In this document: positions 63 to 18,984 of the stretch, piece by piece
How positions within the stretch are numbered: position 1 is the stretch's first letter
How the letters are laid out: each line of letters begins with the position of its first letter
Assembly (NCBI GenBank): GCA_042218075.1
Contig: JBDGRK010000039.1
Coordinates: 1-23,844, forward strand
Source: Candidatus Nanohaloarchaea archaeon
GTDB lineage: Archaea; Nanohalarchaeota; Nanosalinia; Nanosalinales; Nanosalinaceae
Direction of reading: 5' to 3'
DNA length: 23,844 bases
Made by a program: the position numbers and the translations under genes
The notes under the pieces: model-generated
The model's database searches: none
Told to the model about the DNA's origin: nothing
Seen by the model: only the letters and a program-made list of their open reading frames with translations

Positions 63-260
63 TCACCTGTCCAGGTATCCCAGCTTTTCCAGCTTCTCGT
101 AGATTTCCTTTGCCTGTTCTTCAGTAATCTCTTCATCTTTAGATTCGGAGTCCGCAAGCTCTCTCAGCTTGTCCTGGACGAACCTTGAAAGATTGATATG
201 GTTCTCGTCCACGAACTCCGCCAGATCGTCAGGGAGAGAAATCGTTTTCCTCTGCATCAT
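63..260 (-). CDS. Small RHH/CopG-like protein with acidic linker and C-terminal LxxLGYLD tail
   Basis: N-terminus QRKTISLPDDLAEFVDENHINLSRFVQDKLREL is RHH-like, and the tail is EEQAKEIYEKLEKLGYLDR. Start moved from 281 to ATG 260 (or 257) because a TTTAAA box lies at 281-286. Confidence 0.75.
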   Translation of the reverse strand: MMQRKTISLPDDLAEFVDENHINLSRFVQDKLRELADSESKDEEITEEQAKEIYEKLEKLGYLDR

Positions 261-276
261 GCATAAGTTATGCATG
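258..276. promoter_or_regulatory. Perfect inverted repeat, candidate RHH autoregulatory operator
   Basis: CATGCATAA-G-TTATGCATG lies between the TATA-like box (281-288) and the start codon of the RHH gene. Confidence 0.6.
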
Positions 277-314
277 TTCATTTAAAAATAGAAGGGTGAA
301 AGTGATCCGGTTGA

Positions 315-536
315 TCAGTCAAGGTAGCCCAGGCTCTTCAGCCTCTCCTTTACCTTTTCCTCGTCCTCCTCGCTGAACTCTTCTTCCTCCTGCTCCATCT
401 TCCTCTTCACCTTTTCTGCGACTTGGTCAAGCACATAGTTGATGTACTCATCAGTCGAGTCAAACCCCTTGTCCTCGGCTCTCTTCGCAAGAAGGCCATA
501 AGTTTCCTCCGGGATTTCCACTGTGTTTCCAGTCAT
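315..536 (-). CDS. CopG/RHH-family small protein with C-terminal RLxxLGYLD tail
   Basis: TVEIPEETYGLLAKRAEDKGFDSTDEYINYVL is an RHH pattern, and the tail is EEFSEEDEEKVKERLKSLGYLD. A TTTAAA box lies at 570-575. Confidence 0.85.
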   Translation of the reverse strand: MTGNTVEIPEETYGLLAKRAEDKGFDSTDEYINYVLDQVAEKVKRKMEQEEEEFSEEDEEKVKERLKSLGYLD

Positions 537-580
537 TATTGTACCACAACTTACTATGAGATCACTGGCTTTAAACAGCT

Positions 581-1639
581 TTACACTTCTATATCCTCGA
601 CTTCCTCGGAAGTAGATTCAACCTCCATCTCGAACTCCTGCTTCTCGAACTTCTTGCCGAACAGCCTGAGGATCGCCGGAACAACGTCTTTCTGCTCCTT
701 CAATCCTAGATCAGTGTCCGATCTCCAGATGCCGTTCATCGGGTCGTGATCCATCTCAAGCCCTGGATACTGGTTCGGGTTCAGTGACTCCTCCGCCGGC
801 ATCATCCCGTGATCCGAGACAATCAGGACATGCTCCGGATCGATCTCTTCCACCAGCTCTTCCGTCCTCTCATCAATCCACTCGTAGGCCTCCGCGATCT
901 CATCCCGGTCATCCTCTGGATCTAGAGCGTGGAGCAGGTCGTCGATTATGGGGAATACAGCGAAGATCAGCTCGAAATCCTCCTCATCCGAAAGCTCCTC
1001 GATCATATCAAACGCTTCAGAATTGTACTCGTAGATATTATTCTTGTACTCCTCCAGGTTGGGCTTCGACTCATCCTGCAGCGGAGTCTTGCCGTCAACG
1101 TAATCGTAGCCGTTGTAGCGCCTTCTGTACTCTTCATAGCTTTCAGGATAGGCGGAGGGCATCGCTCCGTCGAGAGGTGCGGGGATCCCGGAAAGCATCA
1201 CGCCGTTATGCTTCCAGGCAGGATACGTGAGCGGCACCTCCATGGTCAGAGTCTTTCCATCGACGTAATCCCAGAGCCGCTTGAACTCGACATCGGTGCT
1301 CCTCGGAGTCCTGTCTTTCAGGTTGAATAGCTTGTTCGGGACATAATAGGCGTAGGTCCTGAGTTTTCCTGCAGGAATACGCTTTGTAATAGCCTTGGTG
1401 AAACCCAGGAACTTCCTCGACTTCACCACATTGTTTATGCTGAGGAAGCCGTGGTCCTCAACTTCCAGTCCGGTTGTGATGGTGGTCCACGCCGTTCCCG
1501 AATCAATCGGGATTCCCCTGTAGACATCTTCAGGCAGAAGTCTGCCTCCATACTCAAGGGAAGAGTAATAATCCGGCTGTATCTCATCAAGGTGCTTTTT
1601 CGAGGCTCCGTCCCAGCCTACCACAAGAACTTTGGTCAT
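581..1639 (-). CDS. AlkP superfamily protein, nucleotide pyrophosphatase/phosphodiesterase (NPP) type
   Basis: Motifs VLVVGWDGA, DSGTAWTTITTG (Ser nucleophile position), DDLLH, VSDHG and MDH. Start placed at MTKVLV (1639), which is preceded by GAGG; the ORF track start is 1660. Confidence 0.85.
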   Translation of the reverse strand: MTKVLVVGWDGASKKHLDEIQPDYYSSLEYGGRLLPEDVYRGIPIDSGTAWTTITTGLEVEDHGFLSINNVVKSRKFLGFTKAITKRIPAGKLRTYAYYVPNKLFNLKDRTPRSTDVEFKRLWDYVDGKTLTMEVPLTYPAWKHNGVMLSGIPAPLDGAMPSAYPESYEEYRRRYNGYDYVDGKTPLQDESKPNLEEYKNNIYEYNSEAFDMIEELSDEEDFELIFAVFPIIDDLLHALDPEDDRDEIAEAYEWIDERTEELVEEIDPEHVLIVSDHGMMPAEESLNPNQYPGLEMDHDPMNGIWRSDTDLGLKEQKDVVPAILRLFGKKFEKQEFEMEVESTSEEVEDIEV

Positions 1640-1710
1640 AATCCTCTGTTTTAAATCCATTTATTTTTATTGTATCCTGTAAACTTTCTCAGATAATTCG
1701 GGCCGATCCC

Positions 1711-2400: not shown

Positions 2401-3210
2401 CTATATATCCACTCCCTCTATCTCTCCCTCCTCAACTTTTTTCCTCTCACCCTTCTCTATCACCAGCCAGGGCACCTCTACCAGTTCCTTTATGTAGACC
2501 CCTCTGGGGTGCCTCTTCAGGAACTTCTCCCCGAAACAGTCCCCGTGATCCCCAGTGATCACGATCTTCCCCTCCAGCTGCTCGATCAGCTCCTCCACGG
2601 ATTCAAGCGCTCTCTCAAGATTGGCCTTGTAAGCCTCCCACGAGTTTTCCTGGGCGAAGTGCTCATGAGTCTCATCAACATCTCCCTCGAACATGGAGAT
2701 CGAAGGTTCGCCGATAAAGGGGTCGTGGGGCTGCATGTAGTGGATTATCTTCCTCTTGTCCGGGAAGTTTTCCTCTGCCTCTATCGCCTCCTCTGTCACC
2801 GCTTCCGGCTTGGTGATACCCTTCTCCTGGTAGTCATCCTCCATGTAAACAGGAATTACAGAGTGGAAATGCTCGCTGGCCCTGAAATCTTCCCTGTCCG
2901 AGATGTAGGGATTCGCGGTAACATAGACAACATCCCCGTAGTAGTCAGTGAAGTTCTCGTCCCTCCACTCGAAAGTCGCGGAGCCGAGGCTTCTCTTCTT
3001 CTCAAGCTCTCCTTCCAGCCAGTTCACCTCTTCAAAAGCGTCGTATCGGCAAGCGTCAAGCACAATCAGGTAGTCCCAGTCCTCCTCCATCACCCTGACT
3101 CCTCCTTTATTCTTCAGGGAGAAGTAGAATCTGTAGAAATAGGCTATGAAAGGCGTCCATACACCTCTCCTCAAATTTTTGAACACCATATTCCAGTCCT
3201 TGTCCAGCAT
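2401..3210 (-). CDS. Short AlkP superfamily, sulfatase-like protein
   Basis: Motifs WDYLIVLDACRYD, GSATFEW, HYMQPHDPF, ITGDHG and LVEVPW. Confidence 0.85.
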   Translation of the reverse strand: MLDKDWNMVFKNLRRGVWTPFIAYFYRFYFSLKNKGGVRVMEEDWDYLIVLDACRYDAFEEVNWLEGELEKKRSLGSATFEWRDENFTDYYGDVVYVTANPYISDREDFRASEHFHSVIPVYMEDDYQEKGITKPEAVTEEAIEAEENFPDKRKIIHYMQPHDPFIGEPSISMFEGDVDETHEHFAQENSWEAYKANLERALESVEELIEQLEGKIVITGDHGDCFGEKFLKRHPRGVYIKELVEVPWLVIEKGERKKVEEGEIEGVDI

Positions 3211-3286: not shown

Positions 3287-4867
3287 ATGGAAAAAGACAG
3301 CGCCCTGAGAACGCTTGTGAAAGGTGCGGGTATAGCTGTAATCGGGATTATGGTGACCAACATCACCGGCTATCTCTACAAGATAGTGATCGGCAGGATG
3401 CTTGGCCCGGAAGGTTATGGGATTATTTCACAGGGCCTGATGATATTCTCCATCACCGCAACTATTGCAATGTTCGGTCTGCCTTCAGGAGTAAAGCGGT
3501 TCGTCAGTAAGTATAAAGCGGAGGAAAAAGAAAAACTTGAGAAAGGGACAGTTAGATCGTCACTGGAAATCGGATTAACCTCCAGTATCGCAGCCGCCAT
3601 AATCCTATTTTTGGGAGCGAAGTGGTTTTCAATACAGTTTTTTGGCGATCCAGATATAGCTATCGTTATCAAAATACTTGCATTTGCAGTGCCGATGCGT
3701 GCTTTGATGTCAGTATCCCTCAGCACTTCAATAGCCTACAAGAAGCTAGAATACAAGATCTACGCCAGGAATATAACCGAGGGAGTAGTGAAGATAGTAT
3801 CGACCCTGGTTCTACTCGCACTTGGATTCGAAATATTCGGTGCCGCACTCGCAGTACTTCTCGGCTGGATTTCAGCTGCATCTTTGGCTTTTTACCTCAT
3901 GCACACCCGTATAAGGCCCTACTTCACTGACGGAAAGCCATTCTCAAGGCCCTACAGGAAGCTTGTAAAGTTTTCAGGCCCACTGATCTTCTCGAACGTC
4001 TTCGGGCAGATTACCTCGTGGGCGGATATCTTCCTCGTCGGGTTCTTCATGTCAAGCGCTTCAGTGGGGATCTACAACTCTGCGCTTCCGACTGCGATGA
4101 TCCTGGGAATGGCCTCAAGCGCTATAACAGCTCTCTCAGTCCCTGTAATGACAGAGATGTACGCGAAGGAGAAACTTGGAGAGCTAGAGAAGGTGTACAA
4201 GACAGGTACCAAGTGGGTGTTCATGCTGGCCTTCCCCGGGGCTCTCCTGATGGCGCTGTTCGCGGACCAGGGTCTCTCCCTGATGTTCGGTAGAGAGTTC
4301 GTGGAGCAGAACGCCGGAATACCCTTCATCCAGATATCCACTGCAGGATTGTCGCTCGCGCTACTGACGCTCGGCTACCTTCTATTCTCGGTCACAAGTC
4401 TCAGCAGGCAGCTTGTACAGGCAACTGGAGACACGCAGTACAACCTCTACATATCCGGGATAGTCGGGGCAGGAAACCTTGGTCTTAACCTGTTGCTGAT
4501 TCCAATGTTCGGGATAGTAGGAGCAGCGCTCGCCACCGCCTCCTCATGGGTGCTCGGGGGCTTCTTCTCTCTCTACTACGTCTACAGGGATCTGAAAATC
4601 CATCCATTCAAGTCAACGTTCCTTCCTGTGGTCGTGGCTTCGATAATCTCCGCTTTCATACCTTATGCAGTCTCGAAGGCACTGTTTGAAACAGTTCCAA
4701 GGTTAATTATATTCCCGGCTTTTCTGGCGTTTGTCGCGCTCTACGTAACACTTTTCCTAGTTCTCGGCGGTCTCGAGAAGGACGACTCGATGATCCTGAA
4801 ATCCATCGAAAATAAATTAGGCGTCGAGGTTCCATACCTCGATAGACTGCTGGAGAGATATTCATGA
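3287..4867 (+). CDS. Oligosaccharide flippase (MOP superfamily, Wzx/AglR-like)
   Basis: 526 aa with many hydrophobic segments. Motifs RMLGPEGYG, ADIFLVGFF...VGIYNSA and LLIPMFGIVGAALAT. Confidence 0.92.
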   Translation: MEKDSALRTLVKGAGIAVIGIMVTNITGYLYKIVIGRMLGPEGYGIISQGLMIFSITATIAMFGLPSGVKRFVSKYKAEEKEKLEKGTVRSSLEIGLTSSIAAAIILFLGAKWFSIQFFGDPDIAIVIKILAFAVPMRALMSVSLSTSIAYKKLEYKIYARNITEGVVKIVSTLVLLALGFEIFGAALAVLLGWISAASLAFYLMHTRIRPYFTDGKPFSRPYRKLVKFSGPLIFSNVFGQITSWADIFLVGFFMSSASVGIYNSALPTAMILGMASSAITALSVPVMTEMYAKEKLGELEKVYKTGTKWVFMLAFPGALLMALFADQGLSLMFGREFVEQNAGIPFIQISTAGLSLALLTLGYLLFSVTSLSRQLVQATGDTQYNLYISGIVGAGNLGLNLLLIPMFGIVGAALATASSWVLGGFFSLYYVYRDLKIHPFKSTFLPVVVASIISAFIPYAVSKALFETVPRLIIFPAFLAFVALYVTLFLVLGGLEKDDSMILKSIENKLGVEVPYLDRLLERYS

Positions 4868-5829
4868 AGAGGAAATTCGAAATCCACGGAACCGGGATCA
4901 AGGTAGAGAGCGGGAAGGAAGAATTCCTGGAATTTCTCTCCGACAGGTTCAGTTACTTCAGAGACTCCGGGGCCGGAGTTGATGTGGAAGTTAATGTTAA
5001 TTTTGGTGAGCCGGGCTGGGATGAGAAAAATTTCTCGAAGTTGGCGAACGGAGTCAAGACGGACGGCAAAGAAATCATGTATCAGGACGGCCCGCTGAAA
5101 CTCCGGGCAGGTATAGACGGAAAAGTTTCCATAGAGGCGTTCTTAGATCCAGAGATGTGGAAACATTACGGCAGGATAGCGAAGAAAGGTTATCAGAGTA
5201 CATGGAACGAGTACTATGAGTACTTTCTAGTGAGAAGAGCTGTACAGCTGCCGATGATGTGGAAGATGCAGAGAGAGGGCTTTTACCCGGTTCACGCCTC
5301 CGCTGTGGAAAAAAAAGGAAAAGCGCAAGTCTTCGCGGGATCAGGAGGAGTAGGCAAGACAACACTCGCGCTCTACCTTGCGGAGAGAGGTTACAAGATG
5401 CTTGGAGACAACTTTGTCTTCCTAAAAGGCGGTAAACTGTATCCCTACCCAGAGATGCTGAGAGTCACTGACTTCACACTGGAAAGAGTCGAGAGCCTGG
5501 AGAAAACAGGGAGAGAAGTCTTCGGGCAGGAGGTGGTCGATGTTGAGGATAACATGATTGGAACGGAGCCCGTTGAACTGGAAAGCATCTTCCTGATGGA
5601 GCTGGGAGATTTCAGGCATCGAGAAGTGGAAAACGGAACTGATCGACTATTGTCACTTGCGGACAGCGTACAGGAGTTCCATACTCACCAATACGCTTCG
5701 CTTTTAAGCTTCATCACTGAGGAGAAGCTGGAGTCGAGGGAGAAAATTTACGAGGAAGCAGTGGAAGGATGCGATATAAGAGAAGTATCATACACCAACT
5801 TTGAAGATGTAAGAGAACTTGTAGATTAA
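4864..5829 (+). CDS. HPr kinase-related P-loop protein
   Basis: VHASAV followed by Walker A GSGGVGKTT and GYKMLGDN matches the HprK C-terminal domain layout. Its start overlaps the flippase stop (ATGA). Confidence 0.75.
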   Translation: MKRKFEIHGTGIKVESGKEEFLEFLSDRFSYFRDSGAGVDVEVNVNFGEPGWDEKNFSKLANGVKTDGKEIMYQDGPLKLRAGIDGKVSIEAFLDPEMWKHYGRIAKKGYQSTWNEYYEYFLVRRAVQLPMMWKMQREGFYPVHASAVEKKGKAQVFAGSGGVGKTTLALYLAERGYKMLGDNFVFLKGGKLYPYPEMLRVTDFTLERVESLEKTGREVFGQEVVDVEDNMIGTEPVELESIFLMELGDFRHREVENGTDRLLSLADSVQEFHTHQYASLLSFITEEKLESREKIYEEAVEGCDIREVSYTNFEDVRELVD

Positions 5830-6378: not shown

Positions 6379-7311
6379 ATGAACTATCCTGCTCCATTGG
6401 ATCCAAAAGTCGAGGAAAAACAAGTTAGAACAGATGAATACAGCAGAGCCGGCAACTCCTACTTTTTTACGGAAAGCGGTATGGTGATTCAGAAAGCCGG
6501 AAACCGCTACTTGATCGAGTTCGAATCTCTGGGAGAAGAAACTGTTATAAAGTCCAGTACGGGAAGAAATAGCGATCTTGACCGGTACGTTCTCGACGCG
6601 GAATACTACAGGCTGCTTGAAGAGGGAATATCGCTGAGTCACTTCTCCACCTTTTCAGATGGAGACAAGGCATACGTGCTGACAGGACCCCCTAATACAG
6701 GAAAGACAGGAGTAAACCTCGCGCTGAACCTAAGGGGATACAGATTCATTGCGGATGAAGACGCGCCTGTAAATTCCGATGTTGAAGCACTACCGCTACC
6801 TATGCCCCTTTCAGTTGGAAACAGGAATATGGAGGAATTCCAGGATCTGCTGGATGATCTAGGAGCCGACTACTCCAGTTTCAGGGCTTCAGCCTTCCGG
6901 TCTCTCAGGAAACTTCCCGTACCTCTCGTGGGTAAGGCTCTTGACAGACTGGTGGAGCCGGTGAAGGTAGATCCCCGGGAGCTGAACTTTGAGGAGGATA
7001 AAAGAGAGATCAAAACCGCTTTCTACATACAGCCGGAGAATAGGGAAGACATAGAGATGGAGGAAATGGAGAAGGACGAATTCGTGAGAAAGATGTCGAT
7101 CTGGAACAGTATCCAGAGATCCGGATTCGAGAAGATCTACAGTATCTGGAGGACTGAAAACGATAACTTGAATGAAAATATAGAGGAATCGGAGCAGAAG
7201 GACAGGGAAATCCTCGAAAGCTGCTTTGATGAGGTGGAGGTCAAAAAGCTTAGAGTTCCCCTTGAAAGACAGCCGAGGAAGATCGCAGAGTTCATCGAGG
7301 GAGAGTTATGA
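6379..7311 (+). CDS. Second HPr kinase-related P-loop protein
   Basis: SHFST followed by Walker A GPPNTGKT and GYRFIADE has the same motif spacing as 4864..5829. Confidence 0.7.
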   Translation: MNYPAPLDPKVEEKQVRTDEYSRAGNSYFFTESGMVIQKAGNRYLIEFESLGEETVIKSSTGRNSDLDRYVLDAEYYRLLEEGISLSHFSTFSDGDKAYVLTGPPNTGKTGVNLALNLRGYRFIADEDAPVNSDVEALPLPMPLSVGNRNMEEFQDLLDDLGADYSSFRASAFRSLRKLPVPLVGKALDRLVEPVKVDPRELNFEEDKREIKTAFYIQPENREDIEMEEMEKDEFVRKMSIWNSIQRSGFEKIYSIWRTENDNLNENIEESEQKDREILESCFDEVEVKKLRVPLERQPRKIAEFIEGEL

Positions 7312-8261: not shown

Positions 8262-9710
8262 TCAGATATCGATATCTTCTACATCGTCCCTCTTGACTTC
8301 TTTTTCGACACCGGATTTATAGATCTCGGTCACCACGCGACCGTCCACATCAGAGGGAATCGACAGGCCGTAGTGGTGGAGAATCGTGGGCATCAGGTCG
8401 TAGATTTCGAGATCAAGTTCTCCATGCCAGAAATCCGGTCCATGGGCAGCCCAGATTCCTTCCTGTCTATGGTTGGCTATCCAGCTGCTGGCGCCGCATT
8501 CCTCATCTATCACCTTGTCCGAGAGATCCATCCTTATCTCGACGCCCGGAGCCTGGTCGAGGAAAAGGTCCGGGGCTTCGTCCCCAAACTCTCCCTCGTA
8601 GATTTGATCTCCGTCCTTGACTTCCCTGACAATCTCCCCGTTCTCAAAGCTCTCAAGCTCCTCTTTCAGCCTCTCTTTGAAGGTTTCCGGATCTTCGACG
8701 TTCTCTTCGATTATGTACAGAGGGCCTTCGGAAAGCGCGAATGCTTTGGAATTCTGGAAGTCTATCTTGGGAGCCATATCGGTCTCCTCCACGAACCCAT
8801 CTTCCCTGGGAATCCTTCTCCTGACAGACTTGGGGATAAGCTTCCTCGCCAGATCCTGAAGGCCCAGCTTTTTCACCAGCGAGAACAATCTATCCCTGTT
8901 CAGACCTGTCTTCTGGATCTTGTCCCCAACATCTTTGTTTCTACGTAGGTAGCCTTTTTCCTCAAGCCAGGAGTTGACGTAGAAAAACCTTTCCAGATCC
9001 TGGAAACCGTGGTCGGACATCAGGATTATGTTCACATCCTGCTCCATGATCCTCCCGATCTGTCTGTCGACCTCCTTCCAGACCTCTAGAGTCTCATCAG
9101 AATTCCAGTAGTTGTGCTGCACCCTGTCAGTGAAGAAGAAAGTCAAGTGAAGGAAATCCACCTCATCAAGCTTTTCCAGCGCAAGGTCAGTTCTCTTCGA
9201 AACTATCGACTTTATCTCATCAACCCATTCCCGGGTCTTTTTCTCCGCTGTCGGCTCCACCTGGTAATCCTTCTCGAGTAGTTGATCCTTCAGCTCTTCC
9301 GGATGCGTGAAATCGTCCTCATTAGATGCGAGAGTTCCAGAAACCATAAATTCATCTATCTCGCTCGGCGGATGGGTCGAGGGCATGTTGATCACGCCCG
9401 AGCTTATTCCCTCGTCCGATAGATAATCCCAAATCTCCCTGCTCCTGAAATCTTCAGAGTTAACGAACTCAAGCTCTCCATCCTCTTCATCAAAAGTGAA
9501 CCAGTAAAATACTCCGAACCTGCCGGGATTTCTGCCCGTGGAGTAGGCCTTCCACGCCGGTACAGTCACGTAGGGATGCGTACTCCTGAGATCTCCAGAA
9601 TAGCCGTTCTCGCGTATCTTCTCCAGGTTTGGTAGCTCGCCCTCCTGTATCCACGGCCAGAGGAGATTCCAGGATCCTCCATCTGTACCGATCACAACTA
9701 TTTTCTCCAT
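8262..9710 (-). CDS. AlkP superfamily NPP-type phosphodiesterase/transferase
   Basis: Motifs VVIGTDGG, PYVTVPAWKAYSTG, TDRVQH, MSDHG, ANH and DLMPTIL. Confidence 0.9.
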   Translation of the reverse strand: MEKIVVIGTDGGSWNLLWPWIQEGELPNLEKIRENGYSGDLRSTHPYVTVPAWKAYSTGRNPGRFGVFYWFTFDEEDGELEFVNSEDFRSREIWDYLSDEGISSGVINMPSTHPPSEIDEFMVSGTLASNEDDFTHPEELKDQLLEKDYQVEPTAEKKTREWVDEIKSIVSKRTDLALEKLDEVDFLHLTFFFTDRVQHNYWNSDETLEVWKEVDRQIGRIMEQDVNIILMSDHGFQDLERFFYVNSWLEEKGYLRRNKDVGDKIQKTGLNRDRLFSLVKKLGLQDLARKLIPKSVRRRIPREDGFVEETDMAPKIDFQNSKAFALSEGPLYIIEENVEDPETFKERLKEELESFENGEIVREVKDGDQIYEGEFGDEAPDLFLDQAPGVEIRMDLSDKVIDEECGASSWIANHRQEGIWAAHGPDFWHGELDLEIYDLMPTILHHYGLSIPSDVDGRVVTEIYKSGVEKEVKRDDVEDIDI

Positions 9711-9752
9711 TGAGTTATACAGAGACCTTATAGATTATAACTATTTAGATTT

Positions 9753-10708
9753 TCACTCCCTCCCAAGGTCCTCCGTGAAAAGGCCTTCTACCATTCCCAG
9801 GATCTCGGCGTAGCTCCGCACCACCTTGATCAGCGGAACGAAAACCATGTAGGGATTGGAGGTTCTTCGAATACCCTCTATAACGTAGATCATGACCAGG
9901 AAATACTGGAATACCGCAGTATAGAATATTATCTCATGGAAAGGTGCCATTATAGTCGTCAGTGGAAGTGCGGCGAAGAAAAAGATGCTGAGTAGGGTTG
10001 GGAACGCCTCCGGCCTCTTCCTGAAGTACTGGGGCATGCTCTTTCCGTACCAGCGGCCCTGCCTGAACACTTCACGCAGAGAGGATACTAGTCCGGCGTA
10101 CTCCTCCACATCCTCGAGCTCAACTATCTTGTCATCCGGCCGTTCCAGTCTTTCACCAAGATCCTCATCCTCTCCGTACGCGAGCGATTCGTCGAAACCT
10201 CCTGTCTTCTCCAGCCTCTGCTTCCTGTATATCAGTCCCACCGCAGAACACCTCTCAGCTTCTCCCAGATTTTTCTTATAGCTTTGGCGCGGTTGCTCTT
10301 GTGGCCGAACTTGTTTTCAGCCGAGACAGCCCTGCTGACCCATGTGTCCGTGTAGTGCCTGTGATTCATGTCCACGGAATCCGCGTTCTCCTCCCTGAAA
10401 GCTCTCGCGATCTCTTCCAGCGCGTTCTCGCCCGGAAACCAGTCAGCGTCAAGAAAGTATATCACCTCTCCTCTCGCGTTTCTCCACCCTAAGTTTCTCG
10501 CCACCGCTGTCCCCTTCTGCGGTCCTTCAAGAACCCTCGCACCGCGGCTTTCAGCTACATCGACAGTACCATCAGTCGATCCTCCATCCACCACAACAAC
10601 CTCGTAATCCGAGTAATCCTGTTCCTCCAGCTTCTGGAAAAGCCTCTCCAGGTTCTCCTCCTCGTTTCTCGCTGGCACCAAAATCGAGATGTAGGGATCG
10701 GAACTCAT
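9753..10708 (-). pseudogene. GT2 glycosyltransferase with C-terminal membrane segments, split by a frameshift
   Basis: 10232..10708 carries SILVPARNEE, VVDGGSTD and FLDAD. 9753..10241 carries GGFDESLAYGED, RQGRW and hydrophobic helices. The halves overlap, with the second in the -1 frame, and would give about 318 aa when fused. Confidence 0.8.
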
Positions 10709-12150
10709 ACCTCTATATCATCTATCATGCTGTAAGAAGCCTCTGAAGGATTTTGCTCCAGCTCTGTGAGAACCTCTCCCTCCATGTATCCGGGAATGTC
10801 GAGATCCATCAGGTGGAGCACAGTAGGAGCTATATCAATAATACTGGCATCGACCCTCTGGTTTGCCTTTATTCCTTCTCCAATCGCCCCAAATATACCC
10901 GTGTAGCTGTGGTATGCGTTGGGCGGATCATCGAAGTAGCCTTCCCTGACATCGCCAAGTATGAACTCGGGTTTTAATTCAGCGACGAGCTTCGGGCCCC
11001 TGCCCCTGTAGTCTGATTCTTCCTTAATCTCAAAATTCGAGAAAACCTTTCCTCCATCAGGACCTTCTATATCTTCCAGCTCATCGATCAGCTGTTCCAG
11101 TTTGTCCTGGTCTGAAAAGTCGAAGACCAGCGCGGCACCCACACCGGTCGCCACAAAGTCTGTTTCTTCTAGATCGATCTTGTCGTCCTCTATCTGGTGG
11201 GTTATCCCGGTTCTCCCGTCAGGTACAGCGTCCTGAATATTCTCCGGCACGAATTTTTTGGCCAGAGACCTCATTCCCAGCCTGTTCACGAGGTCCGAGA
11301 TATTGTCCTTCGTAACCCCCATCCTCTCGAGGAGGCTCGTTCTTTTCTTTCTCTTAATGTAGCCTTGGTCCTCCAGCCAGCTGTTCAGGTCGAAGGCGTA
11401 TTCCGGCATCACCATGCCGTGGTCCGACATGAAGATAACCTGATAGCCGTCGGATACAAGTTCGCCAACAATTCTCTCAAGATACGAATCAAGATCCCTG
11501 AACAGCTCCTTCACCTCCTCCTGCTCCGGCTCAGGGTAGAAATGTGTCAGTATGTCGGTTATCCTGATAACGGAGACAAAAAGATCCCACTCCTCCTTCT
11601 TCCTCAGGCGGTCAAGAGCCTGCTTCCTCTTCTCGTAGATCCTGTATATCTCGTCCAGGAACTCCTGCTCCTCCAGGGCGTAGATTCCCCTCGCCTCTAT
11701 CTCGTAGTCGAACTCTTCAAGCAGTTCCTGTTTCAGGTCTGAAGGATATGTAAAATCATTCTTCTCGGAGGGAGTAGTCATTCCAGAGACCATCAAACCG
11801 TTGATATCCTGTGGCGGAAAAGTCACGGGAACGTTGAATATGCAGCATCTTTTCCCCCTTGAAGAGGCGACCTCCCAGAACCTCTCATCCTGTATGTAAC
11901 TTCCGTTAACCGTTCGAATCTCTTCTCCATCGACCAGCTCAAAACCGTATATACCGTGGGACTCTGGCTTCTTCCCGGTCATGAACGATGGCCATGCAGA
12001 TGCAGTAACCGGCGGAGTAGTGGTCTCGAGCTCTCCCCACACGCCTTCCTTCTTCAGTCTCTCGAAGAATGAAAGCTCTCCCTCCTCTATCAGCGGGTCA
12101 AGTATTCGCCATGTAGCACCGTCAAGACCGATAACCGCTACCCTGCTCAT
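10705..12150 (-). CDS. AlkP superfamily NPP-type phosphodiesterase/transferase (paralogue of 8262..9710)
   Basis: Motifs VIGLDGAT, PPVTASAWPSFMTG, TDILTH, MSDHG, AYH and DIAPTVL. Confidence 0.9.
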   Translation of the reverse strand: MSRVAVIGLDGATWRILDPLIEEGELSFFERLKKEGVWGELETTTPPVTASAWPSFMTGKKPESHGIYGFELVDGEEIRTVNGSYIQDERFWEVASSRGKRCCIFNVPVTFPPQDINGLMVSGMTTPSEKNDFTYPSDLKQELLEEFDYEIEARGIYALEEQEFLDEIYRIYEKRKQALDRLRKKEEWDLFVSVIRITDILTHFYPEPEQEEVKELFRDLDSYLERIVGELVSDGYQVIFMSDHGMVMPEYAFDLNSWLEDQGYIKRKKRTSLLERMGVTKDNISDLVNRLGMRSLAKKFVPENIQDAVPDGRTGITHQIEDDKIDLEETDFVATGVGAALVFDFSDQDKLEQLIDELEDIEGPDGGKVFSNFEIKEESDYRGRGPKLVAELKPEFILGDVREGYFDDPPNAYHSYTGIFGAIGEGIKANQRVDASIIDIAPTVLHLMDLDIPGYMEGEVLTELEQNPSEASYSMIDDIEV

Positions 12151-16849: not shown

Positions 16850-17629
16850 ATGAAAGGCGTGATTCTGGCGGGCGGAACAGGTTCAAGGCTGATGCCCTCG
16901 ACCAAGGTGACAAACAAGCACCTGCTGCCTGTATACGACAGGCCGATGATCTACTACCCCCTCGACACTTTAGGCAAGGCAGGTATAGACGATGTGCTGA
17001 TAATCTCAGGTCAGGGACACGCGGGCGACTTCCTTGAACTTTTGGGAGACGGCTCGGATATCCCGACAGAGAGGAAGGGAAGAGAGCTGGAGTTTAACTT
17101 TGACGGGGAGATAACCTACAAGATACAGAAAGAACCCCTCGGCATCGCTCACGCGCTCAGCCTGGCGGATGATTTCATAGAGCCGGGAGAGAAGTTCGTG
17201 GTGATACTCGGGGACAACATCTACGGCGGCGATCCATCCGACCAGATAAAATCCTTCGAGGAAAGCGATTTCGAGGCACAGGTGTTCCTGAAGGAGGTGG
17301 AGGATCCGCAGAGATTCGGGAATCCCAGGGTCGAGGGAGACAGGATCACCCACATTGAGGAAAAACCCGACGAACCCCACTCGGAGTACGCCATAACCGG
17401 GCTCTACGGCTTCTACAACGATGAAGAAAACAGTCTTTTCAAGCATATTGAAACTCTTGAGCCCTCGGACAGGGGAGAGTACGAGATAACTGACATCCTG
17501 AGGTGGTACCAGGAGAGAGCAACTATGACATTCGAGGAGATGGACATGTTCTGGACGGACGCAGGAAAACCCGGAGCTCTGCTAGAAGCCAGCAACTTCA
17601 TGAAGAGAAAGTTTGAGCGGGAAGAATGA
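16850..17629 (+). CDS. rmlA: Glucose-1-phosphate thymidylyltransferase (short RmlA/SpsI type)
   Basis: Motifs GVILAGGTGSRL, KHLLPVYDRPMIYYP, LGDN, EEKP, SDRGEYEITD and WTDAG. Confidence 0.9.
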   Translation: MKGVILAGGTGSRLMPSTKVTNKHLLPVYDRPMIYYPLDTLGKAGIDDVLIISGQGHAGDFLELLGDGSDIPTERKGRELEFNFDGEITYKIQKEPLGIAHALSLADDFIEPGEKFVVILGDNIYGGDPSDQIKSFEESDFEAQVFLKEVEDPQRFGNPRVEGDRITHIEEKPDEPHSEYAITGLYGFYNDEENSLFKHIETLEPSDRGEYEITDILRWYQERATMTFEEMDMFWTDAGKPGALLEASNFMKRKFEREE

Positions 17630-18984
17630 ACATAGTTCTTCTTGTCGCTGACACTCTCAGGGCCAGGAACCTATCGATGTACGGCCACTCGAAGCAGGTC
17701 ATGCCGTTTGTGTCGCAGCTTGAAGAGAAGATAGTGGTCGATAACTACTACTCCAACTCCCCGTGGACACTGCCGGCCCACGCCACAATATTCACCGGCG
17801 AACTACCCTCGGAGCATGGATTTACCACGCAGAACACTTTCTTCGACAAGGACAACGAACTGATCGAATCACTGAAAGAGCAGGGGTTTGAAACCTTCGG
17901 TCTCAGCGAGAACAGCCTGATCTCGGAATCCTTAGGCTTTGGAGAGGAGTTCGACTACTTCTGGTCAGACGCTCCCGAACAGGAGGAAGGAGAGACCTGG
18001 AGAGAGGTCTGGGACAAGGACCTCGAGTACGGAAGCAGGCTGGAAAAGTACAGCGACTTCTTCAGTAAAGCTCTGCGGAGAGGCGACACGGAGTCGATGA
18101 AGACCTTCTTCAGGCATCTCAGGCGGAAGCTGAAAACTGATTCAGAGGACTACAACCCGACCGAGTCAGATCACACGATAAGAGAGGCGCAGAAGATACT
18201 GGAAAAAGGCGAGGACAGATTCCTCTTCGTTAACCTGATGGCGGCACACGCAGCCTACACATTCAACGAGGATCAGAAGGATCGATTCCTGGCAGATGTC
18301 TCAAGAGAGGACATACTAAAGGCGACCTCCTTCAAATCCATTGACGGCATGCTGGAGATGGAGGAAGTTACCGAGAGAGACTTTGAGATCAGGGAAAAGG
18401 CGTACGAGGCCTCCATAAATTACGTTGATAAACTGGTAGAAGAACTTTATAAGGAGGCGCCTGAAGACACTGTATTCCTGCTTGTCGGCGACCACGGCGA
18501 GCTTATAGGGGAGTACGAGAAGCATGGAGTAAGGCTGGTGGATCACCACTTCGGCACTTTCAAGGAAGTAATAGAAGTTCCACTGGTAATATTCGGGAAG
18601 AAAGATATCTCAGATCTTGAGCAGAAGTTTACCGCTGAAAAGCTCTACTCTCACGTGGATCTCTTCCGTCTTATCAGAGACATGGCCGGAAAAGAGGAAA
18701 GCGAGATTGGAGGAGAGCTGGCAAAAGTCGAGTACTATGGCCGGTCAGGTTTCAACAGGCAATTCAATCATGAAATAAAAGAAGGATACAGGCAGCTATA
18801 CGACCGAAAATCATTCTCAATGATAGACCCTGATTTTAAGTACGACCTTGCTTCGGACGGAGAATTCCTGTGGGAAAGAACGGGAGCAACAGAGAATGAG
18901 AACCTTATAGAGAAAGAGGAAGTTCCAGAGAAACTCAGCCAGAAGATGGACATACTCTACAGCTGGAGGATGGATTCGGACTAA
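17626..18984 (+). CDS. Sulfatase-like AlkP hydrolase/transferase (Thr at the nucleophile position)
   Basis: Motifs VADTLRA, SPWTLPAHATIFTG (no C/S-x-P-x-R motif), NLMAAH, VGDHGE and DHH. Its start overlaps the rmlA stop (ATGA). Confidence 0.85.
   Translation: MNIVLLVADTLRARNLSMYGHSKQVMPFVSQLEEKIVVDNYYSNSPWTLPAHATIFTGELPSEHGFTTQNTFFDKDNELIESLKEQGFETFGLSENSLISESLGFGEEFDYFWSDAPEQEEGETWREVWDKDLEYGSRLEKYSDFFSKALRRGDTESMKTFFRHLRRKLKTDSEDYNPTESDHTIREAQKILEKGEDRFLFVNLMAAHAAYTFNEDQKDRFLADVSREDILKATSFKSIDGMLEMEEVTERDFEIREKAYEASINYVDKLVEELYKEAPEDTVFLLVGDHGELIGEYEKHGVRLVDHHFGTFKEVIEVPLVIFGKKDISDLEQKFTAEKLYSHVDLFRLIRDMAGKEESEIGGELAKVEYYGRSGFNRQFNHEIKEGYRQLYDRKSFSMIDPDFKYDLASDGEFLWERTGATENENLIEKEEVPEKLSQKMDILYSWRMDSD

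Follow-up and report, generated by a model that had tools for sequence, protein, structure and literature searches.

Two small proteins encoded next to each other in the window (the whole stretch of DNA that was analysed, 23,844 nucleotides), designated RHH-A and RHH-B, are on balance probably autoregulators serving a locus for glycan sulfation and sulfate activation; the LGY tail which ends both would be a docking helix that enzymes of the pathway also carry. The original prediction had offered, as an alternative to its main proposal, that this tail links enzyme state to transcription; it is this alternative which is now favoured.

The two RHH mini-proteins

The two genes and their tails were located as follows:

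Positions 315 to 536, minus strand: RHH-B, open reading frame of 73 amino acids, a CopG/RHH-type mini-protein of a family which heads archaeal sulfate-activation operons.
Positions 63 to 281, minus strand: RHH-A, maximal open reading frame of 72 amino acids (likely real gene 63 to 257, 64 amino acids), another RHH mini-protein, ending in the same tail.
Positions 318 to 377, minus strand: LGY tail of RHH-B (FSEEDEEKVKERLKSLGYLD), with a Ser N-cap, a 14-residue amphipathic helix and a Gly C-cap, followed by YLD.
Positions 66 to 134, minus strand: LGY tail of RHH-A (EEITEEQAKEIYEKLEKLGYLDR), tail HMM E 8e-11.

Both genes lie directly downstream of, and on the same strand as, the AlkP/NPP gene at positions 581 to 1660 (AlkP1), as had been claimed for them. 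The start of RHH-A is probably at position 257, since the relatives of RHH-A are 64 amino acids in length and a TATA-like box lies immediately next to the ATG at 281. When the two proteins were compared by BLASTP the sole match was a 13-residue stretch of the tail (7 of 13 residues identical), which confirms the earlier description of dissimilar RHH bodies bearing a common tail.

RHH-B has 72 homologues, named in their sources as CopG family regulators, and the family is large and mostly archaeal. The AlphaFold2 (AF2) model of RHH-B (pLDDT 86) has residues 1-9 extended, helices at residues 10-23 and 28-51 and a tail helix at residues 56-69, while the RHH-A model, of low confidence (pLDDT 65), has the same layout; the N-terminal strand and two helices which characterise the RHH superfamily are therefore present in both models. 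The top Foldseek matches of RHH-B were all RHH proteins (among them Arc, the RHH-type MazE, NikR, ParD, omega and CopA), with no match at E ≤0.001. Neither protein passed the curated RHH profile cut-offs of Pfam or NCBIfam: RHH-A scored 14.2 bits against Pfam RHH_5 (cut-off 26), and RHH-B had no RHH family match in Pfam and none in NCBIfam. A tailed relative at positions 8280-8633 of locus L020 does pass Pfam RHH_1 (26.1 bits against a cut-off of 20.5).

The LGY tail and the proteins that carry it

Both mini-proteins end in an acidic helix terminating in LGYLD(R) (RHH-B, ...EEFSEEDEEKVKERLKSLGYLD; RHH-A, ...EEITEEQAKEIYEKLEKLGYLDR). The LGY tail is defined by an acidic linker, an amphipathic helix, L-G-Y-hydrophobic and one to three residues after the Tyr, all of which are found in RHH-A and RHH-B. 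Hydrophobic residues fall at positions i, i+4, i+7 and i+10/11 of the helix, and among 98 distinct tail proteins GY was followed by two residues in 78, by one in 15 and by three in 4. In the RHH-B family the RHH body is variable, but the tail, SEEDEEKVKERLxxLGY, is close to invariant; in 29 aligned sequences, conservation of at least 90% was seen at S55, E56, E57, E59, K61, V62, K63, R65, L66, L69, G70 and Y71. In 12 aligned mini-proteins of the second type, that of RHH-A, residues L56, L59, G60 and Y61 of the tail are invariant.

The tail HMM was run against the 6824 open reading frames of at least 40 amino acids in the 1.10 Mb genome. The two mini-proteins were matched at E 2e-14 and 8e-11, and the next match was a sulfatase on contig C15 (...EEVKKKLRDLGYG) at E 0.065; because both rank far above the next open reading frame, the tail in RHH-A and RHH-B is not a chance occurrence. 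The tail was also seen at the end of a DUF2061 protein and, as set out below, of many AlkP-fold enzymes. True archaeal CysD ends in ...IMQKLRSLGYM, so that an LGY ending is native to an enzyme of the sulfate-activation pathway, and this ending aligns with the C-terminal end (...MEEKKRQGY) of CysD from the Pseudomonas syringae CysD-CysN complex (PDB 1ZUN, 1zun_A); the available portion of PMC5770160 contains no statement on CysD tail contacts in 1ZUN. The LGY tail is a module which the RHH mini-proteins share with CysD, with many AlkP-fold enzymes and with some membrane proteins of the DUF2061 type. A search for longer tail-bearing proteins with RHH-B as query scored nothing, a result which carries no weight as the E-value scale of that database is too harsh for a 19-residue motif.

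Searches of the open-access literature for the LGY tail or a C-terminal LGYL with sulfatase, and for ribbon-helix-helix with sulfate adenylyltransferase, returned nothing relevant. Possible resemblances of the LGY tail, none of them claimed here, are to the MIM1 motif of ESCRT-III, to the C-terminal tail found on ribosomal P-stalk proteins and to the C-terminal MetJ helix.

Linkage to sulfate activation

Sulfate-activation genes were found in 61 of the 79 loci bearing a tailed RHH gene, and in 34 of the 36 in which at least 5 kb was available on both sides (Sat in 37 loci, CysC in 34, DHH in 32, CysD-like in 17, sulfotransferase in 14 and CysN in 10). In 35 loci Sat, and in another 4 CysD, was the next gene on the same strand, giving 39 tailed RHH genes directly upstream of one or the other, and it was observed that RHH-B itself retrieves, by homology, small RHH genes directly upstream of ATP sulfurylase. 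AlkP genes were present in 38 of the 79 loci, where 67 of 68 did not end in LGY. The predicted co-occurrence of stand-alone RHH-LGY genes both with sulfate-activation genes and with AlkP enzymes lacking the tail was thus borne out. Neither activation genes nor AlkP genes were found in 11 loci, 10 of which are short on at least one side; the other (L067) has approximately 10 kb on each side. In a hand tally of 70 genomes of the phylum, 37 had a tailed RHH gene together with CysD-like or Sat, 3 had the RHH gene only, 9 had activation genes only and 21 had neither.

A further predicted link, to HprK-like kinases, found no support and was dropped, as the HprK-like protein of the window had no BLASTP match in any of the 79 loci. 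The search covered the P-loop protein (positions 4864-5829), the 310-amino-acid open reading frame (6379-7311) and the 119-amino-acid open reading frame (1847-2206) of the window, none of which had a BLASTP match at E <1e-4 among the genes of these loci.

Contig C21 overlaps the start of the window by 55 nt and carries a DUF2061 gene, a short NPP gene, a 60-amino-acid open reading frame and the start of a CysD-like gene, broken off at the contig end after 18 residues. RHH-A is likely to be the first gene of an operon of RHH-A, DUF2061, short NPP and CysD-like, an order seen in full in L005, L018 and L052. The CysD-like protein of Nanohaloarchaea reaches 73 bits where the CysD cut-off is 195, and neither Sat nor APS kinase was found in this genome.

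Operator-like repeats upstream of the RHH genes

Three elements were identified upstream of the two genes:

Positions 259 to 275, no strand assigned: perfect 8+1+8 palindrome (ATGCATAA-N-TTATGCAT), candidate operator, downstream of the TATA-like box and upstream of the start codon of RHH-A.
Positions 281 to 288, minus strand: TATA-like box (TTTTTAAA on the minus strand), read from the sequence as a putative promoter element, centred approximately 27 nt upstream of the ATG at 257.
Positions 570 to 575, minus strand: TTTAAA box within the 44 nt that separate AlkP1 from RHH-B, a possible RHH-B promoter.

The palindrome was matched once, against 0.02 matches expected from shuffles, and is identical at the same position in L052 and near-identical in L005. 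By eye, the TTTAAA box was recognised in the corresponding position in 6 of 9 loci from Nanohaloarchaea. No palindrome was found upstream of RHH-B, whose strand is acidic (NTVEIPEE) and which, within the Nanohaloarchaeal phylum, is placed after an enzyme gene and not at the head of an operon; for these three reasons DNA binding by RHH-B is less certain than that by RHH-A.

Across the family the motif TAATTA-N4-TAATTA (allowing one mismatch) was observed, with 49 of 69 sites falling in the 115-nt windows upstream of tailed RHH genes (36 of 79 loci) at a density of 4.26 sites/kb compared to 0.129 sites/kb in 368 other intergenic regions, statistics which are post hoc as the motif was chosen by eye after the upstream regions had been viewed, the related loci also not being independent. 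The motif co-varies with a [YF]TTVS strand, being present with 28 of 37 Y-type proteins and 8 of 58 others, 5 of those 8 being F-type; RHH-A-type genes have a different palindrome and a different strand. When the region upstream of the main tailed RHH gene was scanned in every locus for its best inverted repeat of any kind, only 9 of 78 regions beat shuffles (P <0.05). The palindrome and the TAATTA motif give indirect evidence that the tailed RHH proteins may bind DNA sequence-specifically.

The operator-like sites are arranged as tandem units approximately 10 bp apart (for example TAATTAAATG TAATTAAATA TCATTAA in L069 and L073), an arrangement which also suits another role for the tail, namely that of a self-association helix which would assemble RHH tetramers or arrays on the repeats and oligomerise the enzymes, with no contact between regulator and enzyme. 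The amphipathic character of the helix is compatible with this, no tail-free hub protein common to all the systems was found, and there is a precedent in the Mnt repressor of phage P22, in which an RHH domain is followed by a C-terminal tetramerisation helix and half-sites are repeated. Mnt resembles the present proteins in having one extra C-terminal helix, but that helix is not known from enzymes and has no sequence similarity to the LGY tail. Self-association alone leaves unexplained why the same near-invariant 19 residues should stand on a repressor and on unrelated pathway enzymes, and the AlkP1 co-fold described below, although weak, is far above its controls; we regard this reading as rather unlikely.

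AlkP enzymes and the tail

Five AlkP-superfamily enzymes are encoded in the window (assigned by Pfam scan and inspection of the C-terminus):

Positions 581 to 1660, minus strand: AlkP1, NPP-type, 359 amino acids, Pfam PF01663 at 4.6e-15, ending ...EEVEDIEV.
Positions 2401 to 3210, minus strand: AlkP2, short sulfatase-type enzyme, ending ...EGVDI.
Positions 8262 to 9710, minus strand: AlkP3, NPP-type, ending ...EDIDI.
Positions 10705 to 12150, minus strand: AlkP4, NPP-type, ending ...DDIEV.
Positions 17626 to 18984, plus strand: AlkP5, sulfatase-type, with no special tail (...WRMDSD).

Inspection of the C-termini showed that the LGY ending is absent from all five, as the original prediction had it. 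To call them simply tail-less was nevertheless inaccurate, as four of the five end in an acidic Phi-x-Phi tail of their own. The statement that many sulfatase/NPP proteins carry an LGY-type tail also proved sound: in the AlkP1 family, an ending of the form Phi-x-x-Phi-[GN]-[YF]-x0-4 was found in 60 of the best 150 representatives (35 by the tail HMM), 7 of the 9 closest among them. Orthologues of AlkP1 outside the phylum carry the LGY tail in cis, while 6 of 6 orthologues within the phylum are without it.

Co-folding of the tail with an AlkP protein, a check suggested along with the original prediction, was carried out for AlkP1 with RHH-B residues 38-73 and gave a weak pass, with a score of 0.55 (individual runs 0.61, 0.55 and 0.33) compared to 0.01 for the best of three controls. 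The runs agreed in at least 73% of contacts, with a partner pLDDT of at least 59. Of 80 solved complexes 58 reach the pass mark, as do 2 of 110 mismatched pairs, and passes at 0.60 or under comprised 7 of the 80 solved complexes and both of the passing mismatches, counts which hold roughly here as our own alignments were used. The model gives weak support to binding of AlkP1 by the RHH-B tail, and its signal may echo the cis-tailed AlkP1 orthologues. In five genomes whose RHH locus has no AlkP gene within 10 kb, PF01663 was found elsewhere in 5 of 5 and PF00884 in 3 of 5; AlkP as a universal receptor was not refuted by this, but the test is a weak one, PF01663 being present also in 9 of 14 control genomes.

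The original prediction had the tail supplied in trans to the AlkP enzymes on an RHH scaffold. In this form RHH-B, and perhaps RHH-A, would act off the DNA as a bivalent adaptor giving AlkP enzymes of this lineage the LGY helix which they lack. The absence of the cis tail within the phylum and the weak co-fold pass fit such a role, as do the acidic strand of RHH-B, the lack of a palindrome upstream of it and its position approximately 40 nt after an AlkP gene in the window, L003, L004, L005, L014 and L052. In 3 of 6 phylum genomes, however, RHH-B is not within 1.5 kb of AlkP1, and the local AlkP enzymes have a conserved acidic tail of their own. RHH-LGY genes are equally conserved where no enzyme has lost its tail and are present alongside tailed enzymes, both in L018 and, given the contig C15 sulfatase, in this genome, so that supply in trans to tail-less enzymes is not needed to account for them. 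The family also tracks Sat and CysD (activation genes in 61 of 79 loci) rather than AlkP (38 of 79). An adaptor function is accordingly judged distinctly unlikely.

The Tyr of the tail had further been proposed as a sulfate or phosphoryl carrier by analogy with DltX. With either the Tyr or the Ser as a covalent carrier to or from the AlkP enzymes, the setting would be apt, as the locus handles activated sulfate, and the residues are well conserved: the first residue of the helix is Ser in 86 of the 98 tail proteins and Thr in 9, and Tyr is present in 97 of 98, although the latter count is circular since the HMM used to pick the proteins contains Tyr. No linked loading enzyme was found (the HprK-like kinase being absent from the 79 loci), related AlkP tails have Lys in place of Tyr (...LRLKGKI and ...NIGKI), and the Ser and Gly fit a helix N-cap and C-cap and the Tyr a hydrophobic anchor. 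DltX is a small membrane peptide encoded beside a DltB-type MBOAT and a carrier-protein ligase, whereas RHH-A and RHH-B were modelled by AF2 as soluble helical proteins, and a Pfam scan of the 24 open reading frames of the window found no DltX-associated family, whether DltB-type acyltransferase or D-alanyl carrier. A carrier role is very improbable.

The least credible reading of all takes the pair for orphan RHH-class type II antitoxins, despite an architecture of RHH domain plus C-terminal partner-binding helix, a weak CcdA match (E 0.003, below cut-off) and the Foldseek matches to MazE and ParD, as no toxin gene adjoins them (the neighbours being AlkP1, the other RHH gene and DUF2061) or is conserved next to them across the 79 loci, they keep their place among metabolic genes from one archaeal phylum to another, and their tail is common to enzymes.

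Comparison with known systems

A cluster in the order copG-sat-DHH-NPP-cysC has been described in Pyrococcus yayanosii (Jin et al. 2021, PMC8268124), encoding ATP sulfurylase, a DHH pApase, a type I PDE/NPP and APS kinase, with copG (PYCH_17520) as a putative regulator. As in the loci studied here, a small RHH gene heads genes which make PAPS, and an AlkP/NPP gene lies in the cluster; the same order, with the tailed RHH gene first, is found in Thermococcus and Methanocaldococcus (L064-L077), to whose proteins RHH-B is 46-53% identical. The relevant passages of the paper call the gene a putative regulator only and make no mention of a tail. The window differs from that cluster in having two RHH genes, a divergent CysD-like gene with no Sat, CysC or CysN, and RHH-B in an AlkP-rich glycan locus.

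Agl30 and Agl31 (VNG1056C/VNG1057C) of Halobacterium salinarum are AlkP-superfamily N-glycan sulfotransferases (PMC11980604). They are described, in common with the AlkP enzymes of the window, as sulfatase-like AlkP-fold enzymes in an archaeal glycosylation cluster; by this analogy the window AlkP enzymes are likely to act in glycan sulfation. PAPS has 0 occurrences in the available text of that paper, and its passages name no regulator or tail. With the P. yayanosii cluster and the AlkP-fold N-glycan sulfotransferases both published, the claim of an undescribed glycan-decoration system was too strong. The small RHH gene had already been named in the literature as a putative regulator. The LGY tail, defined here by sequence, appears to be an undescribed motif.

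Among RHH antitoxins (ParD, CcdA, MazE-mt9 as in 6a6x, and FitA), an RHH dimer is likewise joined by a flexible linker to a C-terminal helix which grips a partner, and the partner modulates operator binding (conditional cooperativity). They differ in that no toxin is present here, the presumed partner is a metabolic enzyme, and antitoxin tails are not known from enzymes. In the CysE-CysK cysteine synthase complex and in CymR-CysK of Bacillus subtilis, a C-terminal tail docks into an enzyme and the enzyme-regulator complex tunes transcription. These share with the present proposal sulfur metabolism, tail docking and tuning by an enzyme-regulator complex, but their folds and tails are unrelated.

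Proposed mechanism and its implications

In the autoregulation which we favour, an RHH dimer would bind an operator at its own promoter. Binding of RHH-A at the candidate operator (259-275) would block transcription of the RHH-A, DUF2061, short NPP and CysD-like operon, because the palindrome comes after the TATA-like box and before the start codon. The LGY helix would be non-catalytic, a docking helix like that which ends CysD, many AlkP-fold enzymes and some DUF2061 proteins. Most likely it would bind an enzyme of the pathway, an AlkP-fold enzyme such as AlkP1 being the first candidate, and the amount or state of that enzyme would feed back on transcription through the tail, much as a toxin acts through the tail of an RHH antitoxin or CysK acts with CymR.

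A broader proposal, which we consider unlikely, is that the LGY helix is a universal docking tag assembling a sulfation metabolon of the CysD or CysD-like APS-forming enzyme, AlkP-fold glycan sulfotransferases and pyrophosphatases, and a DUF2061 membrane anchor, with the RHH-LGY repressors competing for the same docking site. Transcription of sulfate activation would then report the number of free docking sites on the enzymes. The Nanohaloarchaeal AlkP enzymes would have swapped the tag for the acidic Phi-x-Phi ending, so that LGY would now be carried mainly by the RHH proteins and the CysD-like enzyme.

Sulfated surface glycans are common in archaea, and both the control of sulfate activation and the coupling of the thermodynamically unfavourable APS-forming step to its users call for an explanation. 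A 19-residue helix which is near-invariant from Nanohaloarchaea to Thermococci and some bacteria, and common to a putative repressor and enzymes of the pathway, offers an experimental handle on this, and the same gene is carried by the tractable hosts Thermococcus and Methanocaldococcus. If the tail does link enzyme occupancy to transcription, the tailed RHH proteins would represent a new and widespread kind of enzyme-sensing regulator.

Two RHH mini-genes with a common C-terminal tail

The window is the entire 23.8-kb contig C33 of a 1.10-Mb genome (47% GC, 40 contigs), which was placed in the Nanohaloarchaea by the names of its homologues. It is a glycan-biosynthesis locus: alongside a Wzx-type flippase and glycosyltransferases of the GT1 and GT2 types there are dTDP-rhamnose and GDP-sugar genes, a P-loop protein resembling HprK/PEPCK and five enzymes of the AlkP superfamily (AlkP1-AlkP5). 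The features under study are as follows:

63-281, minus strand, ribbon-helix-helix (RHH) gene RHH-A, maximal ORF of 72 aa, downstream of the first AlkP gene alongside RHH-B
259-275, perfect palindrome ATGCATAA-N-TTATGCAT
281-288, TATA-like box, the palindrome lying between it and the RHH-A start codon
315-536, minus strand, RHH gene RHH-B, 73 aa, directly downstream of the first AlkP gene
581-1660, minus strand, AlkP1, C-terminus EDIEV at 581-595
2401-3210, AlkP2, C-terminus EGVDI at 2401-2415
8262-9710, AlkP3, C-terminus EDIDI at 8262-8276
10705-12150, AlkP4, C-terminus DDIEV at 10705-10719
17626-18984, AlkP5

Both RHH-A and RHH-B end in LGYLD(R) after an acidic helix (the LGY tail), and this 13-residue tail was the sole stretch aligned when the two proteins were compared by BLASTP. 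When the genome's 6824 ORFs were all searched with a tail HMM, RHH-B and RHH-A were picked out (E 2e-14 and 8e-11, respectively); the third match was a PF00884 sulfatase on contig C15 (E 0.065), which ends ...EEVKKKLRDLGYG. The original observation of two RHH mini-genes with a shared tail is confirmed.

Homologues of RHH-B (n=72, 64-103 aa) were found in Nanohaloarchaea, MSBL1, Woesearchaeota and one Deferribacteres MAG. The tail is the most conserved part of the protein. When 29 sequences were aligned, the body was variable (27-86% identity to the first sequence), whereas conservation reached at least 90% at each of S55, E56, E57, E59, K61, V62, K63, R65, L66, L69, G70 and Y71. The AF2 model of RHH-B (pLDDT 86) has an extended segment at residues 1-9, helices at 10-23 and 28-51 and a separate helix at 56-69, spanning the conserved Ser to the Leu preceding the Gly; with these predicted limits the Ser and the Gly would suit N-cap and C-cap positions, respectively. 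The RHH-A model repeats this layout, although its confidence is low (pLDDT 65), and the start of RHH-A is likely to be the ATG at 257, matching 64-aa relatives. A Foldseek search with RHH-B gave no hit at E<=0.001, the top hits including Arc, NikR, omega, ParD and RHH-type MazE. Neither RHH-A nor RHH-B passes the curated RHH profiles; a tailed relative (L020:8280-8633) does.

Elsewhere in the window, a GT2-domain ORF (10232-10708, 158 aa) and a second ORF (9753-10241, 162 aa) overlap by 10 nt. The second has a weak, sub-threshold Pfam match to the membrane-protein family DUF2069, and the two together (9753-10708) may represent one glycosyltransferase gene broken by a frameshift. The ORFs at 1847-2206 (119 aa) and 6379-7311 (310 aa) matched no Pfam family and had no relative in 79 related loci.

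Gene neighbourhoods and sulfate activation

One genome per species was scanned, 80 loci being retained from 123 relatives; the 79 with a tailed mini-gene formed the counted set (L051, where the match was cut by the contig end, was excluded), and neighbouring genes were clustered and the clusters named by Pfam. Tail carriers were nearly all proteins of 64-119 aa. The recurrent gene order was RHH, ATP sulfurylase, DHH phosphoesterase, (NPP-type AlkP), APS kinase and often a sulfotransferase, and a second order was RHH, CysD, (DUF2061), CysN and a short NPP. Sat was present in 37 loci, CysC in 34, DHH in 32, CysD-like genes in 17, sulfotransferase in 14 and CysN in 10, with at least one of these six in 61 of the 79 loci and in 34 of the 36 where both flanks reach at least 5 kb. 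The predicted co-occurrence of stand-alone RHH-LGY genes with sulfate-activation genes was thus borne out.

AlkP genes were present in 38 of the 79 loci, and the next gene after RHH on the same strand was Sat in 35, AlkP in 6 and CysD in 4. The family tracks Sat and CysD more closely than AlkP. Two non-homologous kinds of ATP sulfurylase are preceded by RHH, which argues for a link with the pathway and not with a single enzyme. Neither activation genes nor AlkP were found in 11 of the 79 loci; in 10 of these at least one flank is short, L067 being the exception. In 20 of the 79 loci there are at least two tailed mini-genes, and tandem or paired RHH-LGY genes are therefore a recurrent feature.

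Part of this system has been described in print. A cluster of copG, ATP sulfurylase, DHH pApase, type I PDE/NPP and APS kinase was reported in P. yayanosii and other archaea (Jin et al. 2021, PMC8268124), where the account of the cluster treats copG as a putative transcription factor and leaves its tail unmentioned; the DHH protein was shown to be a PAP phosphatase (Jespersen et al. 2023, PMC10322725). A search of open-access literature for the tail motif found nothing relevant.

Seventy genomes of the phylum were tallied by hand; as these are related and not independent, the counts are descriptive. Tailed RHH genes were found in 40/70 and CysD-like (40) or Sat (8) genes in 46/70, Sat always being accompanied by CysC. 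Both kinds occurred together in 37/70, activation genes only in 9/70, neither in 21/70 and RHH only in 3/70, namely the window's genome, G008 (81% complete) and G037 (72% complete). APS kinase was confined to the same 8 genomes as Sat.

The reversed contig C21 (1307 nt) of the window's genome joins the window start (1-55) through an identical 55-nt overlap, and the locus therefore runs on into C21. There RHH-A is followed by a DUF2061 membrane protein, a 260-aa NPP-type AlkP, an unassigned 60-aa ORF (L089:1049-1231) and a CysD-like gene, of which the first 18 residues are present before the contig ends. The order RHH-A, DUF2061, short NPP and CysD-like gene is matched in L005, L018 and L052, whose CysD-like proteins are also tailed (...NKDDKEIMDKLR[SKE]LGYM); in L005 a PIN-domain ORF (9429-9839) occupies the position of the 60-aa ORF. 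No CysN adjoins the CysD-like gene in the four Nanohaloarchaeal loci inspected. The Nanohaloarchaeal CysD-like protein is a divergent family member (73 bits versus a CysD cut-off of 195). Its counterpart in Woesearchaeota is a genuine CysD (1zun_A, E 1.2e-66), with an end (...IMQKLRSLGYM) that aligns with the C-terminal end of the solved CysD (1zun_A). Across most genera of the family to which the window belongs, CysD-like proteins (304-324 aa) share 81-93% identity and are far better conserved than AlkP1 (62-77%).

Candidate operators

The palindrome at 259-275 was found once, against 0.02 matches expected from shuffles; L052 has the identical palindrome in the same position, and L005 has one that is nearly identical. 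Another motif, TAATTA-N4-TAATTA, was seen ahead of RHH genes of Thermoplasmatota, Thermococci, Methanocaldococcus, an Asgard MAG and Hadarchaeota and of two Nanohaloarchaeal genes of the RHH-A type; its units often lie about 10 bp apart. When up to one mismatch is allowed, this motif has 69 sites in 1.0 Mb of loci, of which 49 fell in the 115-nt windows upstream of tailed RHH genes (36/79 loci), a density of 4.26/kb versus 0.129/kb in 368 other intergenic regions; as the motif was picked after viewing the upstream regions, these numbers are descriptive and not a test. The motif goes with a [YF]TTVS strand (28/37 Y-type proteins versus 8/58 others, 5 of those 8 being F-type), and RHH-A-type proteins have the strand RKTISLP and are paired with the other palindrome. 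This co-variation of strand and site would be predicted of a strand-reading repressor. Nanohaloarchaeal RHH-B follows an enzyme gene and has an acidic strand (NTVEIPEE), and no palindrome was seen upstream of it; RHH-B of this phylum is the weak case for DNA binding.

The tail and the AlkP enzymes

Two AlkP-superfamily sulfatase-like proteins of a Halobacterium salinarum glycosylation cluster were shown to be N-glycan sulfotransferases (2025 mBio, PMC11980604), and this is a probable role for the window's AlkP enzymes. It had been proposed that RHH-LGY proteins supply in trans a tail that these enzymes lack. Such a reading finds some support: 60 of the best 150 representatives of the AlkP1 family have an LGY-type end (35 by tail HMM), as do 7 of the 9 closest relatives among them (P0073, P0075-P0080, 32-55% identity). 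The 6/6 AlkP1 orthologues in the 70 phylum genomes have an acidic Phi-x-Phi peptide (Phi being hydrophobic) as their ending, and in RHH loci 67/68 AlkP genes are not LGY-ended. Co-folding of AlkP1 with RHH-B residues 38-73 scored 0.55 (runs 0.61, 0.55 and 0.33), against 0.01 for the best of 3 controls; the runs share at least 73% of contacts, with partner pLDDT of at least 59. The mark was reached by 58/80 solved complexes and 2/110 mismatched pairs, but passes at 0.60 or under comprised only 7/80 solved complexes and both passing mismatches, counts that hold roughly since the co-fold used its own alignments. The co-fold offers weak support for supply in trans, and may echo the cis-tailed AlkP1 orthologues.

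As a general rule, trans supply is counted against by the closer tracking of Sat and CysD, by the retention of RHH-LGY where tailed enzymes also exist (L018; the C15 sulfatase) and by the enzymes' own acidic endings. Rather than being tail-less, four of the window's five AlkP enzymes have the acidic Phi-x-Phi ending E-[DG]-[IV]-[DE]-[IV], as do 19 AlkP genes in related loci, all Nanohaloarchaeal. Genome-wide, 10 of about 1100 long ORFs have this ending, versus 4 and 2 in shifted controls. AlkP1 orthologues outside the phylum have LGY there, and the acidic ending looks like a lineage-specific replacement tag.

Other tail variants were observed. DUF2061 proteins between cysD and cysN in Woesearchaeota (L020:9696-9950, L022:11048-11314) are LGY-tailed (...VIKKLRDLGYI), and the copy in the window's genome has no such tail. 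Degenerate endings (...RKARELGYL, ...KKAKELNYL, ...YLDDNGYL, ...YLETQGYLD) occur on APS kinases of Sat-type clusters (L073:14201-14731, L074:13746-14285, L007:9754-10332, L058:12302-12910), and in G003 a tail match shares an open frame with APS kinase. NPP-type AlkP proteins (L074:4874-6514, L062:4229-5758, P0088, P0109) have a sister tail in which Lys replaces Tyr (...IKNLRLKGKI, ...IREMRNIGKI).

A role for the tail Tyr as a sulfate or phosphoryl carrier is very improbable, given Lys at its position in related AlkP tails (...LRLKGKI or ...NIGKI) and no loading enzyme linked to the loci; Tyr was kept in 97/98 distinct tail proteins, a set picked by an HMM that itself contains Tyr. The proposed HprK-like kinase link fell away, as none of the 79 loci carries a relative of the window's HprK-like protein.

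The RHH-LGY family

RHH-A and RHH-B are local members of a widespread and partly described family of RHH regulators linked with sulfate activation and glycan sulfation, and the near-invariant LGY helix is an undescribed module common to CysD, AlkP-fold enzymes and DUF2061. Most likely the RHH domain would autoregulate its operon and the tail would dock on an enzyme of the pathway, with AlkP-fold enzymes as the foremost candidates; the main alternative to docking is that the tail self-associates. What the window adds is the form that the system takes in Nanohaloarchaea, where only the regulators and the CysD-like enzyme bear the LGY tail and the AlkP tails are swapped for an acidic Phi-x-Phi ending, together with the RHH-A palindrome and an operator motif that co-varies with the reading strand across phyla.
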